Shown here: positions 7,414 through 47,879 of the stretch, piece after piece | Position numbering within the stretch: position 1 is the stretch's first letter | Layout: each line of letters opens with the position of its first letter | Virus record (IMG/VR): IMGVR_UViG_3300042269_000666 | Location: 12,507 to 76,506 of that record | Source of the DNA: a virus | Taxonomy: Duplodnaviria; Caudoviricetes | Reading direction: 5' to 3' (one strand) | Length of the DNA: 64,000 nt | The notes under the pieces: generated by a model | Databases searched by the model: none | Told to the model about the DNA's origin: nothing | What the model saw: only the letters and a program-made list of their open reading frames with translations | Position numbers and translations under genes: made by a program

Positions 7414-7416
7414 CAA

Positions 7417-8144: not shown

Positions 8145-8145
8145 T

Positions 8146-14624: not shown

Positions 14625-14627
14625 TAT

Positions 14628-22152: not shown

Positions 22153-22199
22153 TTTATACCTCCATGTTTAAAAGTTTCAACTGCTTTACACCATCTCTA

Positions 22200-22220
22200 T
22201 ATCAGTAAACGAAGTGTCAA
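22200..22220 (-). promoter_or_regulatory. Late-block motif upstream of major tail gene
   Basis: TTGACA (22220-22215) overlapping the upstream stop; 62 nt to ATG, the outlier of the set. Confidence 0.45.
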
Positions 22221-22594
22221 CAAGTGAGAGTTTTCGCTTTTATTTTGAGGTTAGCGCTTACTCCTGTGACATCTTTGCCTTTGTGTGAAGTGGGATAAGT
22301 AGCTATCGAGCCGATTTTCAGGATAGTCAAATTCTGTGAATAATACGGCAGGGACGCGTTTATTTTCGCGGCAATTCTCAAAGCATCGTCCCGGTCTTTG
22401 TACCGTCCCAGTATTTGTACCGTCAGGATTGGGATTGACGGGAAATTGTCAGGATCACAGGACTCTATGTGTATGCCGACCGCGTCGACTACTTTAGCGT
22501 TCAGGATTCCGCGAAATATGGTTTTATCAACGGTCATCTCAAGCTTTTCAGCAAAGTAACCTATCAATGCATGCTCTAAATCAATAATAGTCAT
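22217..22594 (-). CDS. Putative tail terminator / tail completion protein
   Basis: 125 aa, TIFRG, VQILGRYKDRDDA; typical size and motif. Confidence 0.6.
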   Translation of the reverse strand: MTIIDLEHALIGYFAEKLEMTVDKTIFRGILNAKVVDAVGIHIESCDPDNFPSIPILTVQILGRYKDRDDALRIAAKINASLPYYSQNLTILKIGSIATYPTSHKGKDVTGVSANLKIKAKTLTC

Positions 22595-22602
22595 GAAACT
22601 GT

Positions 22603-22663
22603 ACTCCTTTTGATAATGATGTTTCTTGTCAATATTGACAAACCCTGCTTATCTCAAAAGGAG
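22603..22663. promoter_or_regulatory. Back-to-back pair of late-block motifs sharing a 16-bp palindrome
   Basis: TTGTCAATATTGACAA (22626-22641); each strand reads TTGACA-N14-CAAAAGGAG, then ATG. Confidence 0.65.
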
Positions 22664-22670
22664 CTTTTTT

Positions 22671-25391
22671 ATGTCTGACGGTTTGGACTTAGGTAGAATC
22701 GGTTACGAAACTTATATAAACGATAAGCAGTATGAAAAGACACTACGCAAGATGGAGAATGATGCCGAACGTTCCGGCAAAAGTATAATGAAATCGCTTT
22801 TCGGTGCGTTGAGTATTTATTCCGGCTATCGTTTCTTCAAGGGATTGGTGCAGTCTGCTTCTGATCTTATAGAAGCAGAAAACAAATTCAGGGTGGTATT
22901 CCAATCAATAGGTGATTCAGCAGAAAAAGCAAGGAAGCGACTGCAAAAGGCTTTCGGGCGTTCAAAACTGGAATCTGCGGAATTACTTGGAAATGCAGGC
23001 GATATTTTAACTGGCCTTGGATTTAGTGCTGAAGCCGCATTGAAAATGTCATCTCAAGCTGCAGAGCTGTCAATTGATTTAACATCTTTGCAGAATTATA
23101 AAGGCGGCGCCAAAGGTGCTATGGAAGCAATGACTGCTCTGATGGTAGGAGAAACTGAACGGGCTAAAGCATTAGGTATACTTGTTCGTCAGGAATCTGC
23201 GGAATTCAAAAATTTAGTCAAGCATTATATGGAAGTTGAAAAGATGACCTTAGAGCAGGCTAAAGCACAAGCCGCTTTAGATATTGCTATCAAACAATCA
23301 AAAAATGCTATCGGCGATTACGCGAGAACAGCGGAAGAATTTGCCAACTCTTCACGCCGTGCAGGTGAACGAATACAGGATATTGCCTCAAAACTGGGAA
23401 AGAACCTCATTCCTTTGGCTTCAAAGATAATCCGGTTGATCTCATGGGGGACTGATGTGCTTGGAGATATGAACGGGACACTGGTAAGCTCTACAGCATA
23501 CTTCGGCATATGGATTGCCAGTATGTACGGATTGGAAAAAGTATTCGGCATAATGGGGAAAATTAAAAATGCCGTCAATGAGGCAGCTGTTAATGCCGGT
23601 TATATGTCTGCGGAAGCTTTAGCCGCAAAGCAGGCAGAGGAATTAAAGGTTGCAGAAAACCTCAAATCAAACGCTATTCGTCGTGCCCAGAATAAGAAAA
23701 GGGCTCTTGATGAAGCCGTTAACTACAAGATGGAAGCAAAGACCGCTTTTAAAGCTGAACGCCAGAAATACGCGGAAGCCAAAAAAGCCGGAACTGCAAC
23801 CTTGGAGCAAAAAGAAAAACTTAAGAATGCGGCTGGCAAATACCGTCAGAGCCTGGCTAGTCTGACCCGTGCAGAAAGGCAATACCGACGCGCCCAGATA
23901 GCGGCAAATATTACTTCTGCCCGTGCAAGCGCAACGCTCAACAGAAATACAATAGCTACAAAAGTTAACGCAACCGCAAAATATGCTCTTGGACGTGCCG
24001 TTTTATTTACCAAAGCCTGTTTTAAATCTTTGTGGGCCGCAATTGTCGCTAATCCGATTGGGGCGATACTGGCTGTGCTGGGATTGGCTATTTCCGCAAT
24101 GAATGCCTGGGGAGATAGCATAAGGCAAACAGCCGCAGAACAAATAGAATTAGCAAAGAACGCCTCTGAGCTTGCAGATAAAAGGCTGGATTCAGGCAAC
24201 AAACAACGCTTGGCTGACTTGGATAGTCTTGACAGGCTCAAGCGACTGGCAACCGCAGAACGCCTGAGTAATGATGAGAAAGCAGAAGCGAAAGAGCTTA
24301 TTGATGATCTATCAAAACGCTACGGTGATCTTGGAATATCAATTGACAAGACTACAGGAAAATTGAACATTCAGGCCGGGGCATTTGATAAGATCAATAA
24401 AAAAATGCTTGCTCAGGCTCAAGCTCAACGCAAAGCCGTCATTAAAAAGAAGATGGCTGAAATTGAAGCCCTGAAAGCGGAAAATAAAGCATTGGGAAGC
24501 TGGGGCGCTCAAGGCTTCTTCTGGATGAATTCAGAATCAAATAAAGCCAAGCAGGATGCCAACGCCAAAAGAATTAATGCCCTTTGGGATGAAGTCGGGG
24601 CAATGAAAATGGCTGTCAGAAATGCGACTGCTGTTGATAAAGAAAATGATCAGGAAAGGAAAAATAAAGTAAGACAAGCTAAAAATGCAGCAACCAAGAA
24701 AAAATATAAAGAATATGAGGAGCAAGAAGCTGAATGGAGAAACAACCGTTTAAGCGACTATGAACGAGAGCTGAAAGCAATAAATGAAATTGTTGATGCT
24801 CAAAAAATGCGTGCGCAAGAACTTTATAGATTGAAAGAATTATCAAAAGAAGACCTTGAAGCCTCTTTAAAACTGGCAGAATCAGAACGTAAACGCCTGA
24901 CTGATAAGCTGAATGCCGAACGCCAAGCGGAAGAAGCCCGTAAACAGGCTCAGAGAGCGGAGTTATCCCGGGACCTTGAGTATAATCGATTAAAAGCCCA
25001 ATTCCTTGCAGACGGCAAGCTTGACAGGCAGGAAAATATTTCACTGGCAGAAAAAGAGGTTGAACTACAGAAACAGCGTGTAGCGGAAGCCAAAAAGGCA
25101 GCGGAACAGGCAAAAGCCGAGAATAAGGCACAAACTGAAAATGCTTTGGCTCAAGCTCAGATAGAACTTGGTGAAAAAATGCGTGATCTTAAAGCCTTGA
25201 CTGATGCCCCGTTAAAAGCACGGCGAAGCATATCTCAAACTGGCGGTTTTCTGGCAACAAGAGTTTCTCTGATCGGCAATCAAGACCCGGCAAAAGAAAC
25301 AGCCAAGAACACCAAAGACATCGTAAAACATGTTAAGAAAACCGAGCAGAATACTAAAAAGATAGCTGAAAAGACTTTGACGTTTGATTAA
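22671..25391 (+). CDS. Tape measure protein
   Basis: Long Ala/Lys-rich helical protein, ASDLIEAENKFRVVF, central hydrophobic segments; start placed at ATG 22671 after AAGGAG. Confidence 0.85.
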   Translation: MSDGLDLGRIGYETYINDKQYEKTLRKMENDAERSGKSIMKSLFGALSIYSGYRFFKGLVQSASDLIEAENKFRVVFQSIGDSAEKARKRLQKAFGRSKLESAELLGNAGDILTGLGFSAEAALKMSSQAAELSIDLTSLQNYKGGAKGAMEAMTALMVGETERAKALGILVRQESAEFKNLVKHYMEVEKMTLEQAKAQAALDIAIKQSKNAIGDYARTAEEFANSSRRAGERIQDIASKLGKNLIPLASKIIRLISWGTDVLGDMNGTLVSSTAYFGIWIASMYGLEKVFGIMGKIKNAVNEAAVNAGYMSAEALAAKQAEELKVAENLKSNAIRRAQNKKRALDEAVNYKMEAKTAFKAERQKYAEAKKAGTATLEQKEKLKNAAGKYRQSLASLTRAERQYRRAQIAANITSARASATLNRNTIATKVNATAKYALGRAVLFTKACFKSLWAAIVANPIGAILAVLGLAISAMNAWGDSIRQTAAEQIELAKNASELADKRLDSGNKQRLADLDSLDRLKRLATAERLSNDEKAEAKELIDDLSKRYGDLGISIDKTTGKLNIQAGAFDKINKKMLAQAQAQRKAVIKKKMAEIEALKAENKALGSWGAQGFFWMNSESNKAKQDANAKRINALWDEVGAMKMAVRNATAVDKENDQERKNKVRQAKNAATKKKYKEYEEQEAEWRNNRLSDYERELKAINEIVDAQKMRAQELYRLKELSKEDLEASLKLAESERKRLTDKLNAERQAEEARKQAQRAELSRDLEYNRLKAQFLADGKLDRQENISLAEKEVELQKQRVAEAKKAAEQAKAENKAQTENALAQAQIELGEKMRDLKALTDAPLKARRSISQTGGFLATRVSLIGNQDPAKETAKNTKDIVKHVKKTEQNTKKIAEKTLTFD

Positions 25392-25666
25392 TCAATAGAG
25401 GTGAAATACGGGCAGGTTTCTTCGCCTGTCCAAATTTCATCTGATATATACTTGAATTTGGGGCAGGAACGATTCACGGGCTGGCGAATATCGCTATGCT
25501 TATAAAGCTTGCAGTCATAACACTGTTTGCAGGAATGACGGCTATCGTCTAAAGACATGCATTCTGCCCCGTCAATGATTTTTATTCTTCCTTTTATTTC
25601 CGGAAGATTTCGGATTGCTTCAAGGTTACGCTCCTGTTCTTCCTTGCTGACTTCATTTAACTTCAT
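25388..25666 (-). CDS. Small Cys-rich protein downstream of minor head protein (immunity candidate)
   Basis: CKQCYDC..C..CPYF; start at 25666 overlaps the upstream stop. Confidence 0.5.
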   Translation of the reverse strand: MKLNEVSKEEQERNLEAIRNLPEIKGRIKIIDGAECMSLDDSRHSCKQCYDCKLYKHSDIRQPVNRSCPKFKYISDEIWTGEETCPYFTSID

Positions 25667-27098
25667 ATTTAACACCTGAATTTTTCCATACTTTTTTATT
25701 AACATGATGCGCAATGGTAGCTTTGAATTTCTTGTATGGAACTTTGTTATTTAGGTATCTTTGCTGTAATTCGTTATAAGTATCATACCACTTGCCAAGC
25801 AAATTCGCAACATCTTTTGCTGATAAATATTGTTCCAGGCTAAGAGAATAGGTGTGCCTTGGCGAAACTATACGCAATTCTTTCGCTCCACTGCCCAGGA
25901 ATGTAGCAATATCGTCCATTGAAAAACTGGCATCAACTGGATGATTATGGGTAACAATGTTATTTCTTGCAAAATTTGTCGGGATATTAGGCACGGTATT
26001 AGTTGTACCCTGTTTAGCCCATACTAATTTGCCTGTTTCAGAATCAAAAATGCCGGCATGTTCAAAATTACCGTTTGCGATTTTTTCCTCAAAATCTTTT
26101 TGATTATCCGGATAGGTTTCAAATTCCTGCTTGAACTTTTTCATCTTACGGGTTCTTGGAGATTTTAAAGAGCCTTTTTTACGGTATTCGCGCCATGCTT
26201 CTTTATCATCTTTCTGCTCTTTGCCTTTGCTGTTCAGCCCATTATTAGGCCGTCCTTTTTCGTCAAAATCCTCTCCGGCAATCATCGGATCAACAGCAAC
26301 CATGCGGTGAGTGCAATTCGGGTGAAATAATCCTGATGATCGAGCCGATTCGATAGACGGATATTTGCCAGTACCGCTGATAGAGAGCAAACGCCCCTCC
26401 CAGACAGCACAGGCGGGGCAGGGGTTGCCGGACGTACTGATTGCCACAATATCGTTTTTCTCATCGCTACAGCCGTGCAAATAGGCTTCACGGGCGTTGT
26501 TGTGAAGCACTGTACGGCTTAACATTTCAAAATACGCGTCAGAGTTCCACTTCCTGCCGTCTTTTGCTATGAAAATGAATTTCTCGCCACCATTCTCATA
26601 GAACAGGCGTTTTGACACAGCTACTTGAGTTTCACCAGTCAAGGAAGATTCACGCATAACTCGTGCTGAAATACGCCGCAGGTTATTGATTGCAGCTGTG
26701 GACATCTGCTTTGTTGCCCCGGCAATGTGTGTGAAGTCATCTTCCAGCATGAGTTTCATTGTGTTTTTATTCAGGTTGCCGACTACTTCACTTGGATTTT
26801 CGGCAAGGTCAACGAGTGCTGAATGATAAAAGCTCTGAGCAACATAAGTAATTGCCGCTTTTGCGGTTTTCCGGTACTCCTGTTCAAAATCGGCGAACAT
26901 GCCCTGCAGTTCCTCCATAAGCATAACCAGGCGTGGCCCAGTAAATGAAGAACGTTGCTGCAGGACATATTCTTTTATGCGATCCTCAACACGTTCACGT
27001 GCCGCAAGGTAAATTGCGTACATGTCTTTTTCCTTTGCGGAAAGTTCTGTGTAGCCTTTGCTGGCATGGCTGTTGAGGAAAGCACGAATCAGGTTCAT
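25653..27098 (-). CDS. Minor head (MuF/minor capsid-like) protein with C-terminal JAB/MPN-like domain
   Basis: WNSDAYFEMLSRT, CPACAVWEGR, LFHPNCTH; C-terminal THNHPVDASFSMDD. Confidence 0.8.
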   Translation of the reverse strand: MNLIRAFLNSHASKGYTELSAKEKDMYAIYLAARERVEDRIKEYVLQQRSSFTGPRLVMLMEELQGMFADFEQEYRKTAKAAITYVAQSFYHSALVDLAENPSEVVGNLNKNTMKLMLEDDFTHIAGATKQMSTAAINNLRRISARVMRESSLTGETQVAVSKRLFYENGGEKFIFIAKDGRKWNSDAYFEMLSRTVLHNNAREAYLHGCSDEKNDIVAISTSGNPCPACAVWEGRLLSISGTGKYPSIESARSSGLFHPNCTHRMVAVDPMIAGEDFDEKGRPNNGLNSKGKEQKDDKEAWREYRKKGSLKSPRTRKMKKFKQEFETYPDNQKDFEEKIANGNFEHAGIFDSETGKLVWAKQGTTNTVPNIPTNFARNNIVTHNHPVDASFSMDDIATFLGSGAKELRIVSPRHTYSLSLEQYLSAKDVANLLGKWYDTYNELQQRYLNNKVPYKKFKATIAHHVNKKVWKNSGVKYEVK

Positions 27099-27463
27099 AT
27101 TCCAATTACTCCAAGCGCGGCTTTAAAAGCAATGGATAAACCAGTAGTTACAGCATTCAGGAGCAGGTTTGAGACTTTCAGCGACAAGATGGCCTGATGG
27201 TCTACTGCAATAGCACGGTAATTGTCAAGGTTTGCCAAATGACGCTTTTTCTCATCTTCGTCATTAGTAGCAAGCATGGCTTTTACTTCGGTTTCAACTC
27301 CTTTGAGGCACTGTTGCAAGAATGGACGGTCTTCTTTTTTGACTTCTTCTATCATTTCAGAAACGTCTTTTTTGAGTGCTCCAACGTATTCATCCCAATA
27401 TTGTCCAGCGGTCTTTTCCATATCAATCACCTCCAAATGGATTCCATGATTCAGCGTGTTCAC
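27095..27463 (-). CDS. Hypothetical helical protein with hydrophobic C-terminus
   Basis: Start may be MEKTAG at 27421; lysis-cassette position. Confidence 0.55.
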   Translation of the reverse strand: MNTLNHGIHLEVIDMEKTAGQYWDEYVGALKKDVSEMIEEVKKEDRPFLQQCLKGVETEVKAMLATNDEDEKKRHLANLDNYRAIAVDHQAILSLKVSNLLLNAVTTGLSIAFKAALGVIGI

Positions 27464-27905
27464 GGGCTTTTGTAATTACCTTTCGACTTGCCTGATAATT
27501 GAGAATGCGAGCAGTTTTGTCACCTTGGCTCATGGGGGTGCCGTCAGGATACTTACCAGCCTTTACGTATTCCTGATGTTCTTTCCCTGCAGTGTTCAAA
27601 TACGCCTCATAGGAATCCACAAGGGAAGTATTTACGCAGCCAGTCAATAGAAGAAACATTAAACCAAGAAGAATAAAAGCCGTCACTTTTTTCAGCCCTA
27701 ATTGTTTTTCCAGTTGCCGGAATTTTTCCCAACAGTCGCAATCATCTCTGCGAATTTTACAGACAGTATGATCTACCTTGTTTTTGTCGATGTTGGCAAT
27801 CTTCCAAAGAATCGCCCATACTCCACTGATTAACGCAATCAGGATGGTTACAAAAAGCCCGATGATTGTCACAAATAAAAGCATCATGTCAATTGTTACA
27901 TTCAT
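27423..27905 (-). CDS. Holin-like TM segment followed by an internal lipoprotein signal
   Basis: N-terminal TM helix, coiled segment, then KKVTAFILLGLMFLLLTGC lipobox. Confidence 0.55.
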   Translation of the reverse strand: MNVTIDMMLLFVTIIGLFVTILIALISGVWAILWKIANIDKNKVDHTVCKIRRDDCDCWEKFRQLEKQLGLKKVTAFILLGLMFLLLTGCVNTSLVDSYEAYLNTAGKEHQEYVKAGKYPDGTPMSQGDKTARILNYQASRKVITKAREHAESWNPFGGD

Positions 27906-27930
27906 TTTTTTAAATCTCCTCAGTTAATTG

Positions 27931-28335
27931 TTAATCGATCCATGCAGACCAGCCGCCCAATACACACGCCTGGTACGCTAACCAGGCGCGGCGTTCCCAG
28001 AAGCGACGGACAGGAGTCCAGAACCAGCCGGAAAAACGCGCTTTAATTTCAAGTCCCATATTATGACTAAATTCTTCGTTCGTCTCGTTAAACGTGGAAA
28101 GCAGCTTGTCCGAACGATCAAAACGCCAGTCATGGATCAGCACTGGCCCTTTGAATATTCGCAGGAAAATTGTTACAATCCAGCGCGCCCATTTAGGAAA
28201 CCAGTCCGGGCCAGCTCCATTGTAAATTTCTGCAAGTTCTTCAATCGGAGTATTCCAAAATTCTGCCGGAGCTTTCAGACCTAGCTTTTTACACCGATCA
28301 AAGATTTTCTTGATTTCTTGTTCGCGTTTGGTCAT
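27931..28335 (-). CDS. Phospholipase A2-like / DUF1353-like protein
   Basis: YNGAGP (YxGxG loop) and LIHDW (HD dyad). Confidence 0.5.
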   Translation of the reverse strand: MTKREQEIKKIFDRCKKLGLKAPAEFWNTPIEELAEIYNGAGPDWFPKWARWIVTIFLRIFKGPVLIHDWRFDRSDKLLSTFNETNEEFSHNMGLEIKARFSGWFWTPVRRFWERRAWLAYQACVLGGWSAWID

Positions 28336-28337
28336 TG

Positions 28338-28700
28338 TTATACCTCCTCAAGTATTTGTTTAAGGTTTTTTAGTCTGTTGCCGTAAGTGTCGCAATCTGT
28401 CCATGTAACCCCGGCAATTATCATTTTCTTTCCGGCTTCAGCTACGGTGTCGTTGATTGTGATATTCAAGCCGGTGTATTTGGCGTTGATCTCGTCGACC
28501 TGGTCAGACAGCCGTGTTAGAATGGCGTTGAGTTCTGCCCGTGCCTCTGTGCCTCCTGGAACGTTCTCAATGTTGAGTTCGTCCTTATTGCCGGAGTAGT
28601 CGGGCAGGTTTATGACCTGCAACCCGTCTGCTAATCCTGAAACTTTGCCATCGACAAAGTCCACTATATTTCCTGTAGCTGTTTCAAAAATTATTCGCAT
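28338..28700 (-). CDS. Hypothetical tail-fibre-associated protein
   Basis: 120 aa, AAGGAG RBS, follows fibre genes. Confidence 0.5.
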   Translation of the reverse strand: MRIIFETATGNIVDFVDGKVSGLADGLQVINLPDYSGNKDELNIENVPGGTEARAELNAILTRLSDQVDEINAKYTGLNITINDTVAEAGKKMIIAGVTWTDCDTYGNRLKNLKQILEEV

Positions 28701-28712
28701 AGTTTTCGCTCC

Positions 28713-29933: not shown

Positions 29934-29942
29934 AATTGTTCC

Positions 29943-33232: not shown

Positions 33233-33239
33233 TTATAAA

Positions 33240-33272
33240 CCCTTTGTTTTTGTAATAGAAGAACTTTGTCAA
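33240..33272 (-). promoter_or_regulatory. Late-block motif upstream of fibre block
   Basis: TTGACA (33272-33267)-N15-AAAA; 34 nt to ATG. Confidence 0.6.
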
Positions 33273-33274
33273 TA

Positions 33275-33667: not shown

Positions 33668-33966
33668 ACCGCCAGTTTATAAAATTCATGGACATTATCA
33701 AAAAGGTTGTCGATGCGCTGAGCTGACCGCAAATCAAACTCAGCTTCGTTTTTATCGATAAAAGTGCAATCAGCGGTTATCTCATAATCGCCAAGTCCTT
33801 TGCACATATAAAAGTCTTCATACTGCAATACGCCATTAGCATCGCGGTAATTGTCACTCATGATAAAGTAAGTACAGGGATGCTCGGCATATTCCGGCTT
33901 GTTATCGACAAAGTTCCCTGTCGGGATTCTAACTTTGCCAGTATCTCTGCATAGTTCTTCAAACAT
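33661..33966 (-). CDS. Putative head-closure/stopper protein
   Basis: Start placed at ATG 33966 behind AAAGGA, overlapping the portal stop; size and position fit. Confidence 0.5.
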   Translation of the reverse strand: MFEELCRDTGKVRIPTGNFVDNKPEYAEHPCTYFIMSDNYRDANGVLQYEDFYMCKGLGDYEITADCTFIDKNEAEFDLRSAQRIDNLFDNVHEFYKLAVC

Positions 33967-35434
33967 CTTGAGGAGTCCTTTGACGTGGAAGTTTAGGTTC
34001 GTTGGATACTTCATTGATTTCCTTTAGAACCTTTTGGTAAGTTTCTGGGGAAACCTGATTGAGTTCCGCTAATTTGGCTAAGGCGGCACGTTTGACTTCC
34101 CGGGCATATTCATCACCGGCATCAAAGCTCGAAAGATTCATCAAGGCCGCAACTGATTTTTCGATATCTTTAACTGAAAAATCATGGTTGTAGGCAAGCG
34201 TAGGAATCTTTATGGAGGAATCCCAGAGGTTTAATAATTCCCATGCCTTGGCTTCGGCCTGCTCCAACTGTATAGCGCGATTTGCTAAACCCTGCTGAAT
34301 ATTGACCGAATCCCAAGCTTTAGATTCTGCGGTTTGAGCAGATTTGCTGCTGGATTGCAGTGCAAGCCCGACCACATCAAAAAGCTGTTCTTTGAGATAC
34401 GTATTTTCTTCACGGATTGTTTTAGTTTCAACACCACCAGGAGATATGTAACGGCAAATGCCTCTCTCCTGTTCAGTTTCCCAAATCGCGGCACTTTTGG
34501 CTAATTCTTGCGCGAGAGTTAAAGTTGAGGTTGCTGTTGTTTCCCTGCTGGATTCCTCTGTAGTTTCTTCAGTGATTTCAACAGTGCCGCTGGATCGGGC
34601 AAAGCTTTCCGGCAACACCAGCAGGCCGAATAGTTGCTGAATGATATTCATCTGCGCTTCGGAACCGTTATTGAGGATAGCGTCCGATATCCTGACAACG
34701 TCTTCAAACCAATGTGCGCCGGAACCCATACCAAAGCCGTCCGCTTCTTCTATCTTTACCAGTGGAACCCGTCCGAGTCCATGAACTGCATTAGCTGTTT
34801 CTTTTATTTCTCCATTGGAATTTTTTTCAAAAAGCCGCCAGTCGCTTCGGGTCCATACACGACGGCATTCAATGCGCTCACGCTCTGAGAAAGGGGTTTT
34901 TTCATCAAGCCGTGTTTCTGAAATTATAGCCCACGCAATTTCACCGTCTGAATCATATGCCCAGTCCCGAACCGCAAACGGTGATAAAACCTGACAGTAA
35001 GGACGAAGCTTGTGCTTCTTTTTCGTTTCCATATCTACATCATCGACTACTGCCGGCATGTCGACAAGCAGCCAGCTTAAGCCGTAACAATTGAGAGTAG
35101 TTGAGGCCTGTAGCATGACTTCATCAACACGCAAGCCGTGGCGGTCAAAATCTTCCTGTACATCATCGTCCACGCCATCGCGCTTAGGCTTTGAACTTAA
35201 GAGAAAATGACTGATAAGCCGCGCGATCTTTTTAGGCAAATTGATATAGTAGGCTCGTTTCAGGCGTTCCAGATAAGCCATCTCTAATTCTGCCATGTGT
35301 CTTATCAGGGCAGTTTTTAAATAACTTGCACCACCAGAGTAAGCCTGGTTAATTCTGATCCAAGTATTTTCATATTTACTCACCAGGGGATGAGTGCGTT
35401 CAAATAGTATATCATTCGGGTTCATTGGCATCAC
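33959..35434 (-). CDS. Portal protein
   Basis: 491 aa, YLERLKRAYY, WLLVDMP, LGRVPLV; SPP1-like portal pattern. Confidence 0.85.
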   Translation of the reverse strand: MMPMNPNDILFERTHPLVSKYENTWIRINQAYSGGASYLKTALIRHMAELEMAYLERLKRAYYINLPKKIARLISHFLLSSKPKRDGVDDDVQEDFDRHGLRVDEVMLQASTTLNCYGLSWLLVDMPAVVDDVDMETKKKHKLRPYCQVLSPFAVRDWAYDSDGEIAWAIISETRLDEKTPFSERERIECRRVWTRSDWRLFEKNSNGEIKETANAVHGLGRVPLVKIEEADGFGMGSGAHWFEDVVRISDAILNNGSEAQMNIIQQLFGLLVLPESFARSSGTVEITEETTEESSRETTATSTLTLAQELAKSAAIWETEQERGICRYISPGGVETKTIREENTYLKEQLFDVVGLALQSSSKSAQTAESKAWDSVNIQQGLANRAIQLEQAEAKAWELLNLWDSSIKIPTLAYNHDFSVKDIEKSVAALMNLSSFDAGDEYAREVKRAALAKLAELNQVSPETYQKVLKEINEVSNEPKLPRQRTPQDV

Positions 35435-35469
35435 TCCAATTTGTTTTTATAAGTGGAGCGACGTGTCAA
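35435..35469 (-). promoter_or_regulatory. Late-block motif upstream of portal
   Basis: TTGACA (35469-35464)-N15-AAAA; 29 nt to ATG. Confidence 0.6.
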
Positions 35470-35504
35470 TACCATTCTCTTTATTACGCTTCCTATGTCT
35501 ACGT

Positions 35505-35760: not shown

Positions 35761-35770
35761 ATTTTTGCGG

Positions 35771-35798
35771 TTGACATAGCAGGCTCTTTAAAAAGGAG
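35771..35798 (+). promoter_or_regulatory. Late-block motif upstream of plus-strand tail block
   Basis: TTGACA (35771-35776)-N14-AAAAGGAG; 30 nt to ATG. Confidence 0.6.
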
Positions 35799-35806
35799 TT
35801 TTCCAG

Positions 35807-36637
35807 ATGTCGACTATTGATAAATTATACCATAATCATGGACAGAGCAATGACGCGTACAACAAGGAAACAAATGTTGAAATACCATATTTGGTGACAG
35901 GTGTTGAAAGTGTTCAGGATGCAATTGATGCTCTTGCCGCGTCAGAAGATGTACCTAAATTTCATGGACGTTTGGTTGTAACCGGATATGACTTTGACGA
36001 ATTGTCTGCAGAGGGAGCATATCAGATTGTTGTAAAATACGGGTTCTCGGCAACTTCTTCTGAATCATGGTCAAGTTCTGATGATGCGGACAGTAATCCG
36101 GAAGTAACTATTGATATCGGGGCTAATTCCGATACTCGAATGCATTCGCTAAGACGTGTTGCTACAAGTTCCGGCGCTCCTGATTCAATTGAGAGCAAAA
36201 CTGCTATCGGCGTAGATGCTGACGGTAATATCAATGGCTGTAAAGTTCTTACCGGTTATCGTACTCGTACAGAAATATTTTATATGCCGTTGAGACGCTT
36301 GTCTACTAAATACGAGAAAGCCCTTGATCAACTGGTGGGAGCTATCAATAACAAAGCTTTTCGCGGTTATGCTGCTGGTGAAGTACGTTTTGACGGTGCG
36401 ACCTATACTTACAGAGAGGGGCAGGAAGAACCTGTTCGAGTTACTTTCAAATATTCGATTTCAGCCAACATGGAAAAAGTTAAATTCGGCAAATGGAAAA
36501 TGACTAAACGCGGATGGGATTACGCATGGATAAAATACACTACTGACGAAGCGGACGGTGAGCCGGTAGCCGAATATGCTGTGATCGATGAAGTAAGTAC
36601 ATATGACGACTTTGGAAAATTGGGGATAGGCAGATAA
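35807..36637 (+). CDS. Putative tail/baseplate (distal tail-like) protein
   Basis: 276 aa, AIGVDADGNINGC, FRGYAAGEVRFDGA, KRGWDYAWIKY; late motif upstream. Confidence 0.55.
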   Translation: MSTIDKLYHNHGQSNDAYNKETNVEIPYLVTGVESVQDAIDALAASEDVPKFHGRLVVTGYDFDELSAEGAYQIVVKYGFSATSSESWSSSDDADSNPEVTIDIGANSDTRMHSLRRVATSSGAPDSIESKTAIGVDADGNINGCKVLTGYRTRTEIFYMPLRRLSTKYEKALDQLVGAINNKAFRGYAAGEVRFDGATYTYREGQEEPVRVTFKYSISANMEKVKFGKWKMTKRGWDYAWIKYTTDEADGEPVAEYAVIDEVSTYDDFGKLGIGR

Positions 36638-36638
36638 T

Positions 36639-37505
36639 ATGGATAAGGTAAAAAAGGGTGATCCGTTAAGACTTTCGGCAGGATTTATCAATGATACCAT
36701 TGATTCAAACGTCAGGAGCAAACAACATGATTTGACCTTGAATAATTTACGCCTGAAAAATCTTGGTATTGTTACTGTACGGAATAATTCTGATAAAGAC
36801 CGCAAGATTTTTGAACCGATCAATATTGATGGCATTTTGCTTGATATCGAAAAGGATGGCGGCATAAAAACCAATGGCATCTTTAAAGGGGTGCTCGATG
36901 ATAAGATTGATATTTTCGCGGTGTGCCTGAATGCCATTCCTAAAACTAAAACCGGACGTGCCATGCTGGTTGGTATTACTCCGGCCAGAGTGAAAATTGA
37001 GAGTGCAACCCATAAGTACATCACAGTAAAAGACGGCATACTTGTTTCCTGCTCATCAGGTCCGGCACGTTTGTTAGGTTCTCAAAAAGACAATGGCGAA
37101 ACATGGGGCATGATTTACCTCGGCGGTACTGGCAGCGGAGGCAATAACTATACCGGTTTTTTCAGGCTTGAACCTGATGGCGAGAATACCGATACCATAA
37201 ATATTGTAGATGGCTCCGATACCCTTGGCGATAATTGCGGTATTTATGTATCTGGTATTGATAAAACTTTAGTACCCAAAACCAGCCTGAAAATATCCAC
37301 TGAATCTTACATAATGCTTTACGCTACTTATGCAGAGGAAAAGTGGACTATTGAAATAAAAGCCGAACCCAGCATGCCGGATTTTTCCGCTGAAAAGTTC
37401 ACAGCCTTGCTGGGTATCGTTAAATGGGATACCGAAAACAAGAAAATGGGTCAGCCCATACAGATTTGGAATAACGGAATTATCTACAATAACAGGTATA
37501 GTTAA
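36639..37505 (+). CDS. Putative tail tip/baseplate protein
   Basis: MDKVKKGDPLRLSAGFIN start typical of the gene following the above family; Gly-rich linker. Confidence 0.5.
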   Translation: MDKVKKGDPLRLSAGFINDTIDSNVRSKQHDLTLNNLRLKNLGIVTVRNNSDKDRKIFEPINIDGILLDIEKDGGIKTNGIFKGVLDDKIDIFAVCLNAIPKTKTGRAMLVGITPARVKIESATHKYITVKDGILVSCSSGPARLLGSQKDNGETWGMIYLGGTGSGGNNYTGFFRLEPDGENTDTINIVDGSDTLGDNCGIYVSGIDKTLVPKTSLKISTESYIMLYATYAEEKWTIEIKAEPSMPDFSAEKFTALLGIVKWDTENKKMGQPIQIWNNGIIYNNRYS

Positions 37506-37687
37506 GGCTTTTTGATTATGGTATATATTATTTTTGCTTTATCCAACTTATCTGTTAGTTCTTTTAAGGTTCTTCCGGAATATTTAGATTCTTCATCCAT
37601 TACTACGCTGTAACATCCGTTGTCGTATTTTCTGATGCTTGTTTGGGTGCCATTAATTGTAGCTTTTCCAATAAATTCGTAATTCAT
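37502..37687 (-). CDS. Small moron-like gene with its own promoter
   Basis: 61 aa, AAGGAG RBS, ATGAAA-N17-TATAAT upstream, opposite strand to neighbours. Confidence 0.55.
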   Translation of the reverse strand: MNYEFIGKATINGTQTSIRKYDNGCYSVVMDEESKYSGRTLKELTDKLDKAKIIYTIIKKP

Positions 37688-37773
37688 TTTACGCTCCTTA
37701 TGAGTTATTTACATTATACATGATTACGTATGATGTTTCATTTATTTATAAAAAAAATCAAGGAAATTAAATA

Positions 37774-38673
37774 ATGCAAAAACCTACTGCCTGGAGCGAC
37801 TGGAATGATTTACCGATACTGGCCTTGCCGTCAGTTAAAGGCTACGAGATGTATGAAGCGATCCGCGAACGCATTGAATATGTTTTCCCTGAAATGATTG
37901 CTGAGGATATGCCGTCCGCTTTGCGTCCACTGCTTACAGATTTTAACCCGAATAGCGATCATAAGGTTATTGAGCGGAATATGCACAAAGCTATTACGGA
38001 ACTTATCCCATGGTACCGGAACTGGACAAGTGACGATGCAAGGCTTTGGAATGAAGCAGATTTACTTGCTGCGCTGGGAGAAGAAAAACGCATAGAGCCC
38101 AACCCTTATTTTTTAAGCGCGAAATGGCTGAAACAGGCATTCAGGATCGTCAATTACCTCCGAAAAAAAGAGGACATCATTTCTATTACTTGGATTGATG
38201 AAGCCGAACCGGGATACACGGAGGGCAATACTTATGACGAACACAAAGCAATGTTTGAGGATGCAATCGACTTTTTCACGGCAGTTATCCAACCAGGTGG
38301 TGGAAGTGGCGGTGATATTTTTGGTTCTTCTGGCAGGCCGTCAAATGTGCTGTACTATTCCTGTGACCGCGATCCATGCGATTCTATGAACAGCTTTGTA
38401 CAGGCATTCAATGCTTTGAAATCGCAGTATACAGCAACAAAATACACGGTCGGTTTGTTTGTGGATTCATCCGGATCAATGAGTTTGCGTACTATACAGC
38501 CAGCCTATGATAACTTTGTAGCTTATATCAAAGAGTTTTATCCTGATTCACGTCTTGTGGAACGCACTGCCGGCAATGAAGCATGGCTTATATGGACTAA
38601 GGAGTATATAAGCCAGTTGAGATTTAACTTTGAGTTTAAAGAGGAAGAAGAAGCGGAATCACCCGCGAGCTAA
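37774..38673 (+). CDS. Virion protein with C-terminal vWA-like MIDAS motif
   Basis: VGLFVDSSGSM (DxSxS) after a GGGSGG linker. Confidence 0.55.
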   Translation: MQKPTAWSDWNDLPILALPSVKGYEMYEAIRERIEYVFPEMIAEDMPSALRPLLTDFNPNSDHKVIERNMHKAITELIPWYRNWTSDDARLWNEADLLAALGEEKRIEPNPYFLSAKWLKQAFRIVNYLRKKEDIISITWIDEAEPGYTEGNTYDEHKAMFEDAIDFFTAVIQPGGGSGGDIFGSSGRPSNVLYYSCDRDPCDSMNSFVQAFNALKSQYTATKYTVGLFVDSSGSMSLRTIQPAYDNFVAYIKEFYPDSRLVERTAGNEAWLIWTKEYISQLRFNFEFKEEEEAESPAS

Positions 38674-39027
38674 ACGAATAGTTCGCGGAAGTTCTGATTT
38701 CGCTTGTTTGAGAAGCCTTGCGGCACGGGGAGCTATGCCCGGATTATCGCCGTTAATCAGCGTGAAAGACTGGCTTAAGCCTCCGGGCAAGCTTTGACCA
38801 GTGACCACCTTACCTTCAGTTTGCTTGTTGTAATTCCTGATAAGAAATACAGCCTGTTCGCAATATGCTTTTTTCAGCGTGTCGCTTTCTTCTGCATTAT
38901 TCAATATCAGGTCATTACGCGCCATCTCCAGAGCTGCTTCACGGGTAGCTTCATCTTGTGAAGTCCAGTAAGCGCCATCAAGGTGTATGGCAAAATAATT
39001 GTTCGCAAATTCCAGTAATTCAGTCAT
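38659..39027 (-). CDS. Head-tail connector/adaptor
   Basis: FANNYF, LKKAYCEQAVFL, APRAARLLK; follows capsid block. Confidence 0.7.
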   Translation of the reverse strand: MTELLEFANNYFAIHLDGAYWTSQDEATREAALEMARNDLILNNAEESDTLKKAYCEQAVFLIRNYNKQTEGKVVTGQSLPGGLSQSFTLINGDNPGIAPRAARLLKQAKSELPRTIRLARG

Positions 39028-39033
39028 GATTAT

Positions 39034-39612
39034 TTACTCCGTAAACTCCTTGAGAGCCTCGTATTCTTCAATGCTTTTAGGCTGATACCTGCCACGGAAA
39101 TAACTCTTTTTGAGCTTTTCACACCAGCCGGCATTCTTGAAGTGCAGAACAGGAATTTGTTTCTGCTTTTTAGCCTGATCTTTGCTGGCTTGTTCTGCGG
39201 CTTCTCTGGCTGCTTTTTCCGCGTCCGCTTTAGCTTTTGCCTCTGCTTCGGCTTGCTGTCTTTTGGCAAAATCAGCTTCCGTTTCCGGTTTGCCCGGGTC
39301 ACCCTGTAAGCCTGGTTCACCGTTGGGATCGCCATGGGCTTGAATGATAGCTTCGCACATTTCAATCAATTCTTCATGGCTGTATTCTTCGATGGGCTTG
39401 AGTTCCTGTTTGCTGTTCCTGCAAAGGAAATCATAAACAGCTTCAGGATCATTAAGGTCTACTACCTCTGTTTCAGAAGTGTCTCCACCCTTTGCTACTC
39501 CGGTGGCTTCATCATACATCTTTTCAAGTTCTTCAAGCTTGTAGGAATTGATGCCTTTTTCCGGCTTCTTACCCATATCAGTCAGCTTGTCATAGATTTC
39601 TTGTTTAGTCAT
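39034..39612 (-). CDS. Hypothetical head-associated protein (HeH/LEM-like N-terminus)
   Basis: 192 aa directly after capsid gene. Confidence 0.5.
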   Translation of the reverse strand: MTKQEIYDKLTDMGKKPEKGINSYKLEELEKMYDEATGVAKGGDTSETEVVDLNDPEAVYDFLCRNSKQELKPIEEYSHEELIEMCEAIIQAHGDPNGEPGLQGDPGKPETEADFAKRQQAEAEAKAKADAEKAAREAAEQASKDQAKKQKQIPVLHFKNAGWCEKLKKSYFRGRYQPKSIEEYEALKEFTE

Positions 39613-39628
39613 AACTCACTCCGTGAAT

Positions 39629-39653
39629 AAAAAGGCGGCATATTTCAGCCGCC
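39629..39653 (-). terminator. Rho-independent terminator after major capsid gene
   Basis: Minus strand GGCGGC-N8-GCCGCC-TTTTT. Confidence 0.7.
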
Positions 39654-39666
39654 ACGATTATCGGAA

Positions 39667-40854
39667 TTAACCGGTAATGCCATCCATAAGGATGTGGTTA
39701 ACTCCCACGTTTTCAACGATGAACCCGACAGAACCCTGAATGGATTTTCTCACTTCACGGCTGGATGCGCTGGGCTCATCCTTTTTCTGCAGGCCGTCAT
39801 CAGTGAGCCAACCCTTTTGGCAGTCGGACTGCTTAACGATCGGCAGTCGGTTATTGCCCATATCAGAATCAACACGAACCTTGATGATGTGTCCCTCAAA
39901 GTCGATAGAGTCGATATACACACCAGCGGTATGGTCGGCTTTGGTAGTCTGAACAGCCAGCTGACTGTTAGCCATGTTGAAAGTATTGATAATACCCTTG
40001 TTGGTCGGAGATGCCCAAATGGTATCTACAACGCCGCCTGCGTCAAAAACCATCTTGATAGCAGCAACAACTTTTTCTTCGGCAAGAGCGCCGGTATTGT
40101 TGTAGAGCAACGGGGCACGGTTGCCATTGTTAGTATCAGTCAACTGGGAATACAATCCGGCAGACATATAGCGGTCGGAATCATCGACTGCTTTCTGTTT
40201 GCGTCCATGGATAGACATACGAGCGAGAGTTTCTGCAACCCTGATCATTGCTTCCTGAACGATGATATAAGTTGCATCTGCAACACTCAGGCCTTTTCCC
40301 ACGTAAATGGCATGCTTTGTCCAGTCCATGACTTCAAAGATGGTCTGCACATAGTTGCTGTAAACGCTGGTAAGCTCAGACATGCTCTTAACGTTCTTGA
40401 GGTCGGTATCCGCACCAGCGTAACCAATGACAGAAAACGCGGTCTGATCAGCATGGGCTGCGGCAGTAGAATCACCTGCGCCACGAGCATATACATCAAT
40501 GGTATTTGCCGCACGGTCTACAGCTTTGATAATGACCACTTCATCTTCCACCTGCAGAACATGACCGATATTCAGGCCTTTAAGTATATCGGCAGGCATT
40601 TTCAGTCCGGAAACAGCGACATTATCCCAACCGCCAGCAGCTCCATCGCCAATGAGTCCATCACGGCTGGTTTTGCTTCGGCTGTAGATATCAAACTGTT
40701 TATTGGTCAACGGGGTGTCAGGTGCGCCCATACCCTGATAAAAGGCACCTTTAAACGGACCAAGTTCGATAGCTTTGGCTACTGCCAGCACTACGGGGTC
40801 TTTCTTGGCTACAGGGTCTGAGAACTCTGTGAATTGTCCGAATTCAAAAGACAT
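39667..40854 (-). CDS. Major capsid protein (SU10/DUF5309-like)
   Basis: 395 aa after scaffold; SNYVQTIFE, RYMSAGL, DSIDFEG, SIQGSVGF; terminator follows. Confidence 0.8.
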   Translation of the reverse strand: MSFEFGQFTEFSDPVAKKDPVVLAVAKAIELGPFKGAFYQGMGAPDTPLTNKQFDIYSRSKTSRDGLIGDGAAGGWDNVAVSGLKMPADILKGLNIGHVLQVEDEVVIIKAVDRAANTIDVYARGAGDSTAAAHADQTAFSVIGYAGADTDLKNVKSMSELTSVYSNYVQTIFEVMDWTKHAIYVGKGLSVADATYIIVQEAMIRVAETLARMSIHGRKQKAVDDSDRYMSAGLYSQLTDTNNGNRAPLLYNNTGALAEEKVVAAIKMVFDAGGVVDTIWASPTNKGIINTFNMANSQLAVQTTKADHTAGVYIDSIDFEGHIIKVRVDSDMGNNRLPIVKQSDCQKGWLTDDGLQKKDEPSASSREVRKSIQGSVGFIVENVGVNHILMDGITG

Positions 40855-40859
40855 ACTCC

Positions 40860-41450
40860 TTACTCCTTATTTTGGTTGTTGTCGATTTCGGTTTGTAATT
40901 CTATTACTCTTGAGGCCTCACGTTTTGTCAGGTTATCTTTACCCAACAATTCGTTAAGCTCCGCTTCCTGGGTCTTGGTTTTGTCCTCAGGAGTTTTTTC
41001 ATTTCCTGAACCGCCACCACCTTTATTTACTTCCGCAGTGAAATATTTCGGCTTATCCTTTTTCAGGTTGTCCATAAAAGATTCGCCGTCTTTTTCGAGA
41101 TCAACTTTGTCTTTGCCGACAAGGTATTTGAGGTACTCTGGATCAGTAAACTTATGCTTAGAGGCCAGCTTGCTTACTGCAAGATCAAAATCCTGTGCGG
41201 TCTTGGCAGCCTTGACATCATCATTCTCTTTTTTGAGCTTTTCGTTTTCTTTTTGAAGCTTTTCCACTTCCGAAAGTTTGTCGTTTTCGGCATCGTCAAT
41301 TTTCTGCTGAGCTTCTGCAAGCTGTTGAGCAAGTTCTTTTTCCTTGCTGTCATCATGCTTCGGCTCGTTGTATTCCTGCAGAAACTTCTTTTCCGCGTCA
41401 GAAAGCTCTTCACCTTTCAAAACTTTTGCTAGGAGTACTTTGATTTTCAT
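40860..41450 (-). CDS. Head scaffolding protein
   Basis: Highly charged coiled coil, KPKYF..GGGGSG; precedes capsid gene. Confidence 0.8.
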   Translation of the reverse strand: MKIKVLLAKVLKGEELSDAEKKFLQEYNEPKHDDSKEKELAQQLAEAQQKIDDAENDKLSEVEKLQKENEKLKKENDDVKAAKTAQDFDLAVSKLASKHKFTDPEYLKYLVGKDKVDLEKDGESFMDNLKKDKPKYFTAEVNKGGGGSGNEKTPEDKTKTQEAELNELLGKDNLTKREASRVIELQTEIDNNQNKE

Positions 41451-41460
41451 ATGCTGGATA

Positions 41461-41490
41461 TCCCTTTTTACATAAGGCTTCCTTTGTCAA
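41461..41490 (-). promoter_or_regulatory. Late-block motif upstream of scaffold/capsid block
   Basis: TTGACA (41490-41485)-N15-AAAA; 34 nt to ATG. Confidence 0.6.
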
Positions 41491-41671
41491 CATTGAAAAA
41501 GACTTGTGGAGTGATAGTGTATGAAAAAGAAAAGGTGAGTATTTATGGATAATGGCTACTGGTAATCAATAAAATGGAACATTTAACCTTTAATTATTTA
41601 TAAAGCTACTTTTGATTTTTCAACACAGAGAATACATAAAATTAAAGCAAAAATAATTAAAAGATAAGAAA

Positions 41672-42409
41672 ATGAATAATCAACAAATACAGGGTTGTAA
41701 GGCGTTAACTGAAAATGTATTAGAGTATTTAGATGAGTTTATTCGCAATGCAATATCAAGAAGTTCAAATATTCAATGTGTCAAAAGCATAGCTCATGAT
41801 TTGAATGTAATGAATGAATTTATTGGTCAAGAATCTCCAGATTGGATAAAAAATTTGATAGGGTTATGTGCTCGAGGACAAACAGACCCAAATACAACAC
41901 AAGAAATAATTAAGCTTAGGTCAGCTATTGAGTATTTCTCTTGGGAAGATTTTTATAACGATGATGGAGATATAGACAAATTAGACTATGATAAAATATT
42001 TACCGAAGAAGCCAATAAAAATGGGTTGAATGAGGCTCTTGATCGTTTAGTTGAATGCTTGGAAATAATTAAAAATGAGTCTCAGTTTAATTTTTCTAAG
42101 CAAACACGCATTGATATTGAAACTTTAATAATTGGACTAAAAAAGTCAAAAGGGAAATCAGAATCTTCAATAAAAACATGGGTGGAGTCAGTTTGGGCAC
42201 TTATAAAAACTTGTATTCCTCATGCTGATAAAATTGAAGCATTAAACAAATTGCTTTCTGATACTCAACACGCTTATAATGATGTATCTTTTAAAATAAT
42301 TGAAGCAAAGAACATGGTTATAGCAAAAATTCAAAATGAATTTTGCAATCAGAAGCTCCTGCCCAAATTTGAAGAGGCTAAGCAAATTGCAAACAATAAT
42401 TCTGAGTAA
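41672..42409 (+). CDS. AT-rich moron, unknown helical protein
   Basis: 245 aa, visibly AT-rich, antisense to flanking late genes. Confidence 0.65.
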   Translation: MNNQQIQGCKALTENVLEYLDEFIRNAISRSSNIQCVKSIAHDLNVMNEFIGQESPDWIKNLIGLCARGQTDPNTTQEIIKLRSAIEYFSWEDFYNDDGDIDKLDYDKIFTEEANKNGLNEALDRLVECLEIIKNESQFNFSKQTRIDIETLIIGLKKSKGKSESSIKTWVESVWALIKTCIPHADKIEALNKLLSDTQHAYNDVSFKIIEAKNMVIAKIQNEFCNQKLLPKFEEAKQIANNNSE

Positions 42410-42412
42410 ATA

Positions 42413-42898
42413 TTAAAAATCACCTTTCAGTAACTTATCCAGGAACTTTTCGCGCTCCTCGAAGCTCATATTCTCAATGAGCTTTTCAGCCATAGCTACT
42501 TCGGTGGCATTCTCAACCTCAGCTTCAAGCTTGTGCTTGTCGCTCCACTTTTCAGGACGGCGGTTAACCAGCCAGAACTTGATCGCGTTCACGTCCGGTT
42601 CAAAGGTTTTAGTCTTGACGGTTTGTTTAACAATTTCACCATCGCCATCGGTTTCCAGATGCCGTTCGCGGACTTCAAAGCCCAAACAACGCTTAAGCAG
42701 GGCGTTCTCAACCTTGGTATCAACCGGAGCTTTCCCGCGCGCGATAGCCTCCAAAAACTCTAGGTGCTTCTTCTGGTAATTGTAGTAAGTTGCGGTCGAT
42801 ATGCCGAGTTTTTGGGCGATCTGTTCGTCGTTAAGTCCCTCTCTCGCAAACCCTTCCGCAAGTATTGGAAAGTTTTCGTTATATTTGCCTTTGCTCAA
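42413..42898 (-). CDS. terS: Terminase small subunit
   Basis: HTH DEQIAQKLGISTATYYNY, VENALLKR, AIKFWLVNRRPEKW. Confidence 0.85.
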   Translation of the reverse strand: MSKGKYNENFPILAEGFAREGLNDEQIAQKLGISTATYYNYQKKHLEFLEAIARGKAPVDTKVENALLKRCLGFEVRERHLETDGDGEIVKQTVKTKTFEPDVNAIKFWLVNRRPEKWSDKHKLEAEVENATEVAMAEKLIENMSFEEREKFLDKLLKGDF

Positions 42899-43401
42899 AA
42901 TAGTTTCTCCTGAACCGCATCACCCTCTACAAACTGTTTCTTGTATCTGTTTCTTGCAGCGGTAATTTTCGACAATGTCAGGCAGAAGATACTTTTCAGT
43001 TCCGGATGATTTCTTACCGCAAATAAAAGGGCTGTATTAATGCGCTGTCGAGATACGCCTCGCTCCCTTGCCATTTCAGCCTGTGTAATATTCGGATTGC
43101 GAACCAAGGCACTAAGGAGCGAGAGCGTATTATCATCAAGAGAAAGTATGTAATTCAGAACTTCTGACAAATTCTCGTAATTATCACTTTTACCGATTTT
43201 ATCACACTCGTTGCTTTTACCTGCAACACGAAAAGAGTTCTTGTCGTAATCTACTGCATTACGAACTCTGTTGGCGTTATCAGGGTTGGGACTGCTGGTC
43301 ACATATTCGCACGAGTCCCAGTACTCACAAACATTTTTGCAGGATTGGTCGAAGTGTCCGAAACATTCACCTGCGGTTTTTTCGTAGTTTCGTTCTGTCA
43401 T
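42895..43401 (-). CDS. Cys-rich, sigma70 region-4-like HTH protein; candidate late activator
   Basis: N-terminal C-x7-C-x3-C-x5-C; C-terminal ITQAEMARERGVSRQRINTAL; start moved to ATG 43401 behind AAAAGGG. Confidence 0.6.
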   Translation of the reverse strand: MTERNYEKTAGECFGHFDQSCKNVCEYWDSCEYVTSSPNPDNANRVRNAVDYDKNSFRVAGKSNECDKIGKSDNYENLSEVLNYILSLDDNTLSLLSALVRNPNITQAEMARERGVSRQRINTALLFAVRNHPELKSIFCLTLSKITAARNRYKKQFVEGDAVQEKLF

Positions 43402-43411
43402 TTTTTTACTG

Positions 43412-43440
43412 CACCCTTTTATTTTTCGGCAAAGTGTCAA
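43412..43440 (-). promoter_or_regulatory. Late-block motif upstream of HTH/terS block
   Basis: TTGACA (43440-43435)-N14-AAAAGGG; 33 nt to ATG 43401. Confidence 0.6.
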
Positions 43441-43449
43441 CACAGCCAA

Positions 43450-47865: not shown

Positions 47866-47879
47866 AAGTATCTCCTTTT

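Follow-up and report, generated by a model that had tools for sequence, protein, structure and literature searches.

The 64-kb window analyzed here, positions 12,507 to 76,506 of the 76.5-kb virus record IMGVR_UViG_3300042269_000666, carries a temperate tailed phage that spans approximately 17.9-63 kb, and the subject of this analysis is a motif of about 26 bases that stands in front of its late genes, which encode the virion and the packaging machinery. The phage encodes an integrase (17900-19207), TerL (19588-20997) and, on the plus strand, the tape measure protein (TMP; ATG at 22671, end at about 25391), whereas the genes for the portal (33959-35425), the major capsid protein (39667-40854), the scaffold (40860-41450) and terS (42413-42898) are all located on the minus strand. 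Further virion genes encode a MuF-like head protein and fibres, and the replication and early region runs on the minus strand from 62 kb down to 45 kb. As relatives of the portal with 40-52% identity are located in Victivallales and other Lentisphaerota genomes, the host is, judged from these relatives, a member of the Lentisphaerota. No close relative was present in the phage records searched, and a portal search of a viral contig collection returned no relative either.

The initial annotation had reported the hexamer TTGACA at the head of eight late blocks, and all eight copies were located. Seven of them (22632-, 22635+, 33272-, 35469-, 35771+, 41490- and 43440-) do form one class, as had been proposed: all are intergenic, oriented to the next gene and placed before virion or packaging genes, a run of A residues begins 13-15 nt past the hexamer, and the ATG, which is the start codon at every window site, follows 30-38 nt past the hexamer end when starts supported by a Shine-Dalgarno (SD) sequence are used. 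The refined form of the motif reads T-R-TTGACA-N11-T-N3-AAA-R. Two copies stand back to back in front of the TMP gene, with the left half (22607..22634, minus strand, 21.3 bits) heading the block from 22594 down to 19214, which extends from a gene for a 125-aa protein to TerL, and the right half (22633..22660, plus strand, 21.5 bits) heading the TMP gene itself; the head-to-head palindrome of 16 bp described for this pair exists as TTGTCAATATTGACAA at 22626-22641. A further minus-strand copy between the neck and fibre genes (33247..33274, 19.9 bits) begins 2 nt past the upstream stop codon, and the portal block is headed by a copy at 35444..35471 (minus strand, 17.7 bits). The plus-strand block 35807-38673 is preceded by a copy at 35769..35796 (plus strand, 21.0 bits), and the scaffold and major capsid block by one at 41465..41492 (minus strand, 16.8 bits). 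The weakest member, before terS and a gene that encodes a four-cysteine (Cys4) cluster and a helix-turn-helix (HTH), lies at 43415..43442 (minus strand, 10.9 bits), and its AAAAGGG is 13 nt from the ATG, beyond a good SD distance. The eighth hexamer, 22220- (22195..22222, minus strand, 11.3 bits), had to be removed from the class, as it has no A-run at the proper spacing and its ATG is 68 nt away; a TTGAAA-18-TAAAAT sequence at 22180-22151 is located closer to the gene. In addition, a near-copy with one mismatch, TTGAGA-N11-TTATAAAAAAGGAG-N7-ATG (47874..47901, minus strand, 16.0 bits, rank 7), precedes the gene 47026-47865 for a 279-aa product without assigned function and overlaps the 3' end of the RusA gene; a middle or late unit may begin at this copy.

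The significance of the motif lies in its position. The hexamer is not enriched globally in the window (45 copies versus 43.2 expected), in agreement with the remark in the initial annotation that TTGACA also occurs by chance inside genes; seven copies are located 32-46 nt upstream of a start codon on the same strand versus 0.43 expected for random placement of 45 sites, and none of 20,000 simulated placements gave seven. The class was also recovered independently with a weight matrix that was trained on 14 sites from other genomes only and used to scan the 128,000 positions of the window. Six of the window sites took ranks 1-6 with 16.8-21.5 bits and 43440- took rank 11, while a shuffle control gave 0.15 expected matches above 16 bits. 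In the reciprocal scan a matrix made of the seven window sites placed the intergenic sites of a prophage in the Lentisphaerota genome G228 at the top of 80 kb.

An alignment of 22 sites, numbered with the first T of TTGACA as position 0, revealed T at position -2 in 15 of 22 cases, a purine at -1 in all of them, T at position 17 in 19, A at positions 21-23 in 20-21 and purines at positions 24-25, with no conservation upstream of position -2. A promoter conserved further upstream of the hexamer was rejected on this ground. The A-run had been described as running into the SD sequence, and part of its signal indeed comes from the ordinary A-rich SD context of the phage; however, the T-N3-AAA at fixed distance is a conserved second element, as 33272-, 35469- and many sites of relatives, including those in hosts with 54-59% G+C, keep the A-run at a fixed distance from TTGACA with the SD elsewhere. 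High-G+C relatives whose terS and portal genes share an operon have one copy, TTGACA-N14-16-(TG)AAAA(A)G, at its head, and the SD follows after about 30 further nt; the A-run is therefore part of the signal and more than SD context. An imperfect TTGACA/TGTCAA inverted repeat does not describe the motif, as positions 18-20 misfit and A23 is left unexplained, and an antisense promoter with the complement of the A-run as -35 box works only within the back-to-back pairs, by construction. Sigma-54, extracytoplasmic function (ECF), sigma-28 and sigma-32 promoters were rejected since -24/-12 or CGT-type elements are missing from the logo, and inversion sites of the Hin/Gin type were rejected as there is no inverted half-site.

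The search in relatives suggested with the initial annotation found the motif at equivalent genes in L008, L009, G228, G001, G183 and G106. The metagenomic contigs L008 and L009, with about 76% DNA identity to the window, keep the portal copy and the fibre copy, respectively, with TTGACA intact, little or no change in the distance to the ATG and a diverged spacer; for the fibre copy (33272-) the 34-nt distance to the ATG is retained in L009. Portal homologues in G228, G001, G183 and G106 are also preceded by the motif. The prophages of G228 and G001 have most structural genes in common with the window phage at about 26-60% protein identity, and eight and four copies, respectively, stand before their structural genes. 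In G228, a complete genome of 3.66 Mb whose prophage region has 32% G+C, the copies precede the tape measure gene and its divergent neighbour (as a pair), the 20994 homologue, TerL, MuF, the portal gene and its divergent neighbour (as a pair) and the scaffold homologue (locus B, 23984). In genome coordinates these G228 sites fall at about 1,238,823-1,238,877, 1,239,86x, 1,243,28x, 1,246,50x, 1,252,034-1,252,090 and 1,623,98x. Its two back-to-back pairs occur at the same gene junctions as in the window, J7850/7854 at the tape measure gene and J21066, which belongs to the 35771+ orthologue, together with the portal copy. The copies in G001 stand before the portal gene, a neck-region gene, the tape measure gene and a distal tail gene. 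The back-to-back pattern matched only in G228 and G045 among 401 Lentisphaerota genomes, and the G045 match was rejected as a phage relative because the locus is without protein similarity to the phage. The exact pattern TTGACAN{14,15}AAAAGGAG gave single, chance-level matches among the matches listed for viral contigs, and three DNA contig sets compared at 80% likeness covered the window sparsely, with none over the motif sites. Two side observations concern TTGACA and other repeated sequences in these genomes. A leader of about 50 nt past TTGACA that reads ...GCG.GGTCAC.C.CGTAAAAA.G.TGTGAAGT... is conserved before the scaffold homologues at position 20955 of G001 and position 7669 of G276 (joined regions) and could represent a structured leader RNA. 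On the G001 contigs C2, C3, C10 and C11, TTGACAAAATTGGCATGAAAAAGG occurs in four identical copies, which probably belong to an insertion sequence and have no relation to the phage motif.

Comparison with host promoters confirmed that the layout is not an ordinary one. TTGACA at the seven sites is the exact -35 consensus hexamer, as found in the tandem TTGACA-N16-TAAATT promoters of the four rRNA operons of G228, and other host or moron promoters in the genomes of relatives read TTGACA-N17-TAnnnT. In contrast, a -10 hexamer TAnnnT at 16-18 bp is absent from all seven sites, where AAGGAG, AGGAGT, AAAGGG, AAACAA or AGGGTG occupies this spacing, and a scan of 19-39 kb for consensus promoters does not pick up any of them. 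The motif is also not a host-wide class, a possibility raised from the start as one that would speak against a phage signal: TTGACA-N12-15-AAAAGG occurs 11 times genome-wide in G228 versus 10 times for the reversed control, and three of the 11 matches are within 13 kb of the prophage. Within the phage, none of the seven copies lies in the replication and lysogeny region, and the early promoter TTGCTT-N16-TATAAT cited as the canonical contrast case was located at 62305-62278 on the minus strand. A near-consensus promoter of host type, ATGAAA-17-TATAAT, is present at 37713-37741 on the minus strand ahead of a 61-aa open reading frame (37502-37687), which runs opposite to the surrounding plus-strand structural block and looks like a moron. 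Positions 1-17000 of the window, with about 50% G+C until about 10 kb, encode an amidoligase and a large serine recombinase, followed by a group of genes for Dcm, a GHKL-ATPase/kinase and a DUF4365 protein, and appear to be a mobile element or defence island distinct from the phage. Taken together, the motif is a real, conserved and non-canonical signal of late genes; it had been proposed to be a phage-specific late promoter or activator site, and of this proposal the conserved cis-signal at the head of late blocks stands, while its function as a promoter is discussed below as a matter of interpretation.

A feature that the initial annotation had missed is a hairpin between the SD and the sequence just past the hexamer. 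At about a third of the sites the 15 nt past TTGACA pair with the SD of the gene that they precede, and the pairing is specific, with a mean of -5.71 kcal/mol for cognate versus -4.63 kcal/mol for non-cognate combinations, a value reached in 5 of 20,000 permutations. The clearest case is the portal leader (35426..35463, minus strand), in which the 10 nt directly past TTGACA pair with the SD region of the portal gene (dG -13.4, z -4.7; z -5.9 in L008) and the cognate duplex of -15.5 kcal/mol ranks first of 37. Strong hairpins are found at 35469-, L008, G001 (three sites), G183, L010, L045 and L034, and about half of the sites, including three of seven in the window, are without a usable hairpin. 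G+C-rich stem-loops followed by a T-run occur at J19507, J26184 and J29244 of G001 and at J12288 and locus B 23984 of G228, and in the window six of the seven sites have either no stem-loop of this terminator type or a weak one.

Several lines of evidence bear on where transcription would start. The divergent intergenic regions measure 76 bp in the window and 63 bp in G228, with 2-5 bp between the two hexamers of a back-to-back pair, and the paired motifs are their only conserved content; because these regions must hold two promoters, the motif pair presumably represents them. A terminator hairpin with its T-run reaches to 1 nt before TTGACA at J8864 and J15508 of G228, arguing that the start is not upstream of the hexamer. 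The genes leading divergent blocks have well-spaced SDs that start 19-26 nt past the hexamer, and as an SD is useful only if it is transcribed, the transcript should include it. Together with the anti-SD pairing, this suggests that transcripts begin past the hexamer and no later than about position 24; the centre of TTGACA would in that case lie about 8-20 bp upstream of the start, and the hexamer would not be a -35 box. The start may lie near position 12, which is G or A in 16 of 22 sites and where several hairpins begin, or it may lie in the A-run, where five of the seven window sites have a pyrimidine at position 20 and then A21. The G001 sites favour the A-run, as hairpins with T-runs would otherwise terminate the site's own transcript.

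The best candidate for a factor that reads the motif is P0121 (42895..43401, minus strand). This protein of 168 aa combines a four-Cys cluster near its N-terminus with an HTH resembling sigma region 4 in its C-terminal part, and its gene is located just upstream of terS behind the copy 43440-. Its family comprises 91 representative relatives, mostly of 140-200 aa, with two invariant Cys residues, two more in at least 90% of the members and the C-terminal pattern LDDYTL...G.SRQA.HRK...PEL. Profile and feature searches gave weak similarity to KorA/ArdK, YlxM and sigma region 4, and P0121 and 55 relatives matched generic HTH families only (HTH_24 and MarR_2, with Sigma70_r4 in 3 of 56). A membership in the RinA/ArpU/LtrC superfamily was rejected, as none of these 56 sequences gave a match of the ArpU or RinA type. 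The single-sequence fold was poor and the alignment-based model reached a predicted local distance difference test score (pLDDT) of 77. Of 301 sampled Lentisphaerota genomes, all 43 that have the close portal family also have the P0121 family, compared with 5 of the remaining 258. Many of these genomes have the P0121-family and portal genes at a distance of 2-3 kb, and in several other genomes the P0121-family gene stands behind canonical-looking promoters and not behind the motif.

On balance, we think that the motif is the start signal of late units, i.e. virion and packaging genes, in a lineage of temperate Lentisphaerota phages, and that it acts as a non-host promoter dependent on a phage factor. 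The sites would be silent with plain host holoenzyme and would be switched on by a divergent sigma-like protein or an activator, possibly P0121, and the anti-SD pairing, with a T-run after the hairpin in some relatives, would insulate the blocks from read-through transcripts or tune translation. A number of points weigh against this interpretation. At five of the seven window sites the A-run overlaps the A-rich surroundings that SDs generally have in this phage, the two start-site estimates (about position 12 versus about position 21) disagree, and the terminator-like hairpins between TTGACA and the ATG in G001 would halt transcripts beginning just past TTGACA. The alignment-based model of P0121 had no significant match in the PDB and its fold matches were weak, Pfam and PHROG searches recognized no sigma-like or RNA polymerase family in the phage, and the facts about P0121 fit an early-made activator or sigma-like factor and a packaging accessory of terS equally well. 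Finally, the most frequent start-codon position, 36 nt from the first T, is the point at which sigma-70 would initiate leaderless transcripts with TTGACA as -35 box. A compact late promoter with a single region, in which T-R-TTGACA about 10-20 bp before the start is read by host polymerase together with P0121 and a built-in hairpin that blocks read-through is bypassed by internal starts, seems to us rather unlikely in this specific form.

The start-codon position also belongs to the case for ordinary sigma-A promoters, in which TTGACA would be a true -35 box with a degenerate -10 element and a start about 35 nt past the first T, giving leaderless or short-leadered transcripts without any phage factor; TTGACA is the host -35 consensus, all window sites have ATG, and of the 19 A-run subfamily sites for which a start codon was assigned, 10 have it at 32-38. 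We nevertheless regard this as quite improbable, as no hexamer with A2 and T6 is present at 16-18 bp at any of the seven sites and the start-codon position varies from 32 to 46 within the A-run subfamily and reaches 85 in relatives. Moreover, the well-spaced SDs of the block-leading genes would fall outside the transcripts, the conserved site-specific leader hairpins require that the first 15 nt past TTGACA are transcribed, and a prophage with eight constitutive late promoters of consensus -35 type would not stay silent. The hairpins open another interpretation at the RNA level, in which UUGACA is the single-stranded 5' tag of a hairpin that conceals the SD, and acts as a terminator in some relatives, to be opened or antiterminated by a phage protein, with the promoters elsewhere. 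The significant cognate pairing, the strong hairpins at 35469- and several relatives, the cassettes of hairpin and T-run in G001 and G228 and the conserved four-Cys cluster of P0121 are in line with this idea, which we consider improbable because the hairpin is not usable at so many sites, promoter-like conservation upstream is missing, the two G228 terminators abutting TTGACA leave no space for an upstream promoter and, with so few bp between paired hexamers, each leader would start inside the other. It is very unlikely that the motif is a protein-binding site without transcription start, either a repressor operator on the late blocks or a cassette for recombination and shuffling. The 16-bp palindrome is similar to a dimer operator, the gene order differs among the window phage, G228 and G001 with motif-led inverted blocks in the window, and a cassette is duplicated in G001; but most copies are single, asymmetric and fixed in orientation to the gene, no copy is present in the early and immunity region where a repressor must act, and the divergent blocks need promoters for which the 63-76 bp offer no other candidate.

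Several known systems resemble the motif in part. Late promoters of the T4 type consist of TATAAATA, recognized by gp55 together with gp33 and the sliding clamp. They are also short phage-specific elements before many small late units on both strands, lack a canonical -35/-10 pair and contain an A/T-rich octamer, similar to T17-A24 of the present motif, which often reads TATAAAAA. In contrast to T4, the present motif has an invariant TTGACA 11 bp upstream, no homologue of gp55, gp33 or the clamp was found in this phage, and we are dealing with a temperate siphovirus-like phage of a host from the Planctomycetes-Verrucomicrobia-Chlamydiae (PVC) group. In phages of Gram-positive bacteria, the genes for the late activators RinA, ArpU and LtrC directly precede terS (PMC3753634). 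A gene for a small DNA-binding protein directly upstream of terS (here P0121, with a predicted HTH) and a dedicated late signal are common to both, but those phages use one late promoter for one long operon, whereas at least seven copies on separate blocks are present here, and P0121 is without sequence match to those families. The promoter-early stem-loop (PeSL) cassettes of RB49 and phi1 have been linked to modular shuffling (PMC2839356). They are likewise repeated cassettes of promoter and stem-loop at block borders, and here the gene order varies and cassettes are duplicated in G001; however, PeSLs are strong early promoters of the canonical sigma-70 type, carry terminators and flank non-essential genes, whereas the present sites are without -10 box, lead essential late genes and have the hairpin downstream of the hexamer over the SD. 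In phage Mu, the zinc finger protein Com activates translation of the mom mRNA. This system also combines a hairpin that hides the SD and has a conserved single-stranded 5' flank with a phage-encoded Cys4 protein, but it involves one site and one gene, while the hairpin is lacking at about half of the present copies, and P0121 is far larger than Com and has an HTH too. We found no description of this signal or of Lentisphaerota phage promoters in the literature; a study of inducible Lentisphaerota prophages in a cultured host, analyzed by strand-specific RNA-seq, reported induction of what appear to be the matching prophage genes (PMC11361711). It covers strains WC36 and zth2 (genomes CP085689 and CP071032; RNA-seq data PRJNA946146 and PRJNA756144), and LJT99_05290, LJT99_05300 and LJT99_05340, which by gene order and annotation seem to be the TerL, minor capsid and portal genes of the related prophage, increased 15- to 70-fold.

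The distribution of the motif follows the architecture of the late genes. The structural genes of G001 are collinear on a single strand, whereas the window phage has three inverted blocks, each headed by a motif-like copy or pair. The relative in G228 is even split over two loci 370 kb apart (1,236,000-1,253,000 and 1,600,000-1,627,000 of G228:C1; L047/L048 and L086-L088), one with the tail, TerL, MuF, fibre and portal genes and the other with repressor, replication, the Cys4-HTH gene, terS, scaffold and capsid, and the motif is present in both. Within 3 kb, contig C4 of G001 (L049/L050) repeats an identical cassette of about 45 nt, at positions 26184 and 29244 of the joined region; it is composed of TTGACA, a 9-bp hairpin with the SD as 3' arm, eight T's and the ATG. 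With a motif copy of its own in either orientation, each late block could be inverted or moved while its expression is kept. If our interpretation is correct, such a start signal per block would free the phage genome to invert and scatter its structural modules.

Most phage late promoters keep the -10 box and have no -35 box. The present signal reverses this layout, as it has a perfect -35 word, no -10 box and a position too near to the gene. To our knowledge, nothing is known about gene regulation in phages of the Lentisphaerota or the wider PVC group except for the chlamydiaphages. If the start signal is what we assume, it would represent a new promoter architecture and probably a new factor that directs RNA polymerase; if the compact form with an internal hairpin applies, the host -35 word would have been reused at another promoter position and every late block would be self-insulated. 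The motif together with the P0121 family would then also serve as a marker to find and orient the late genes of these phages, whose prophages are present in about 15% of the sampled Lentisphaerota genomes.

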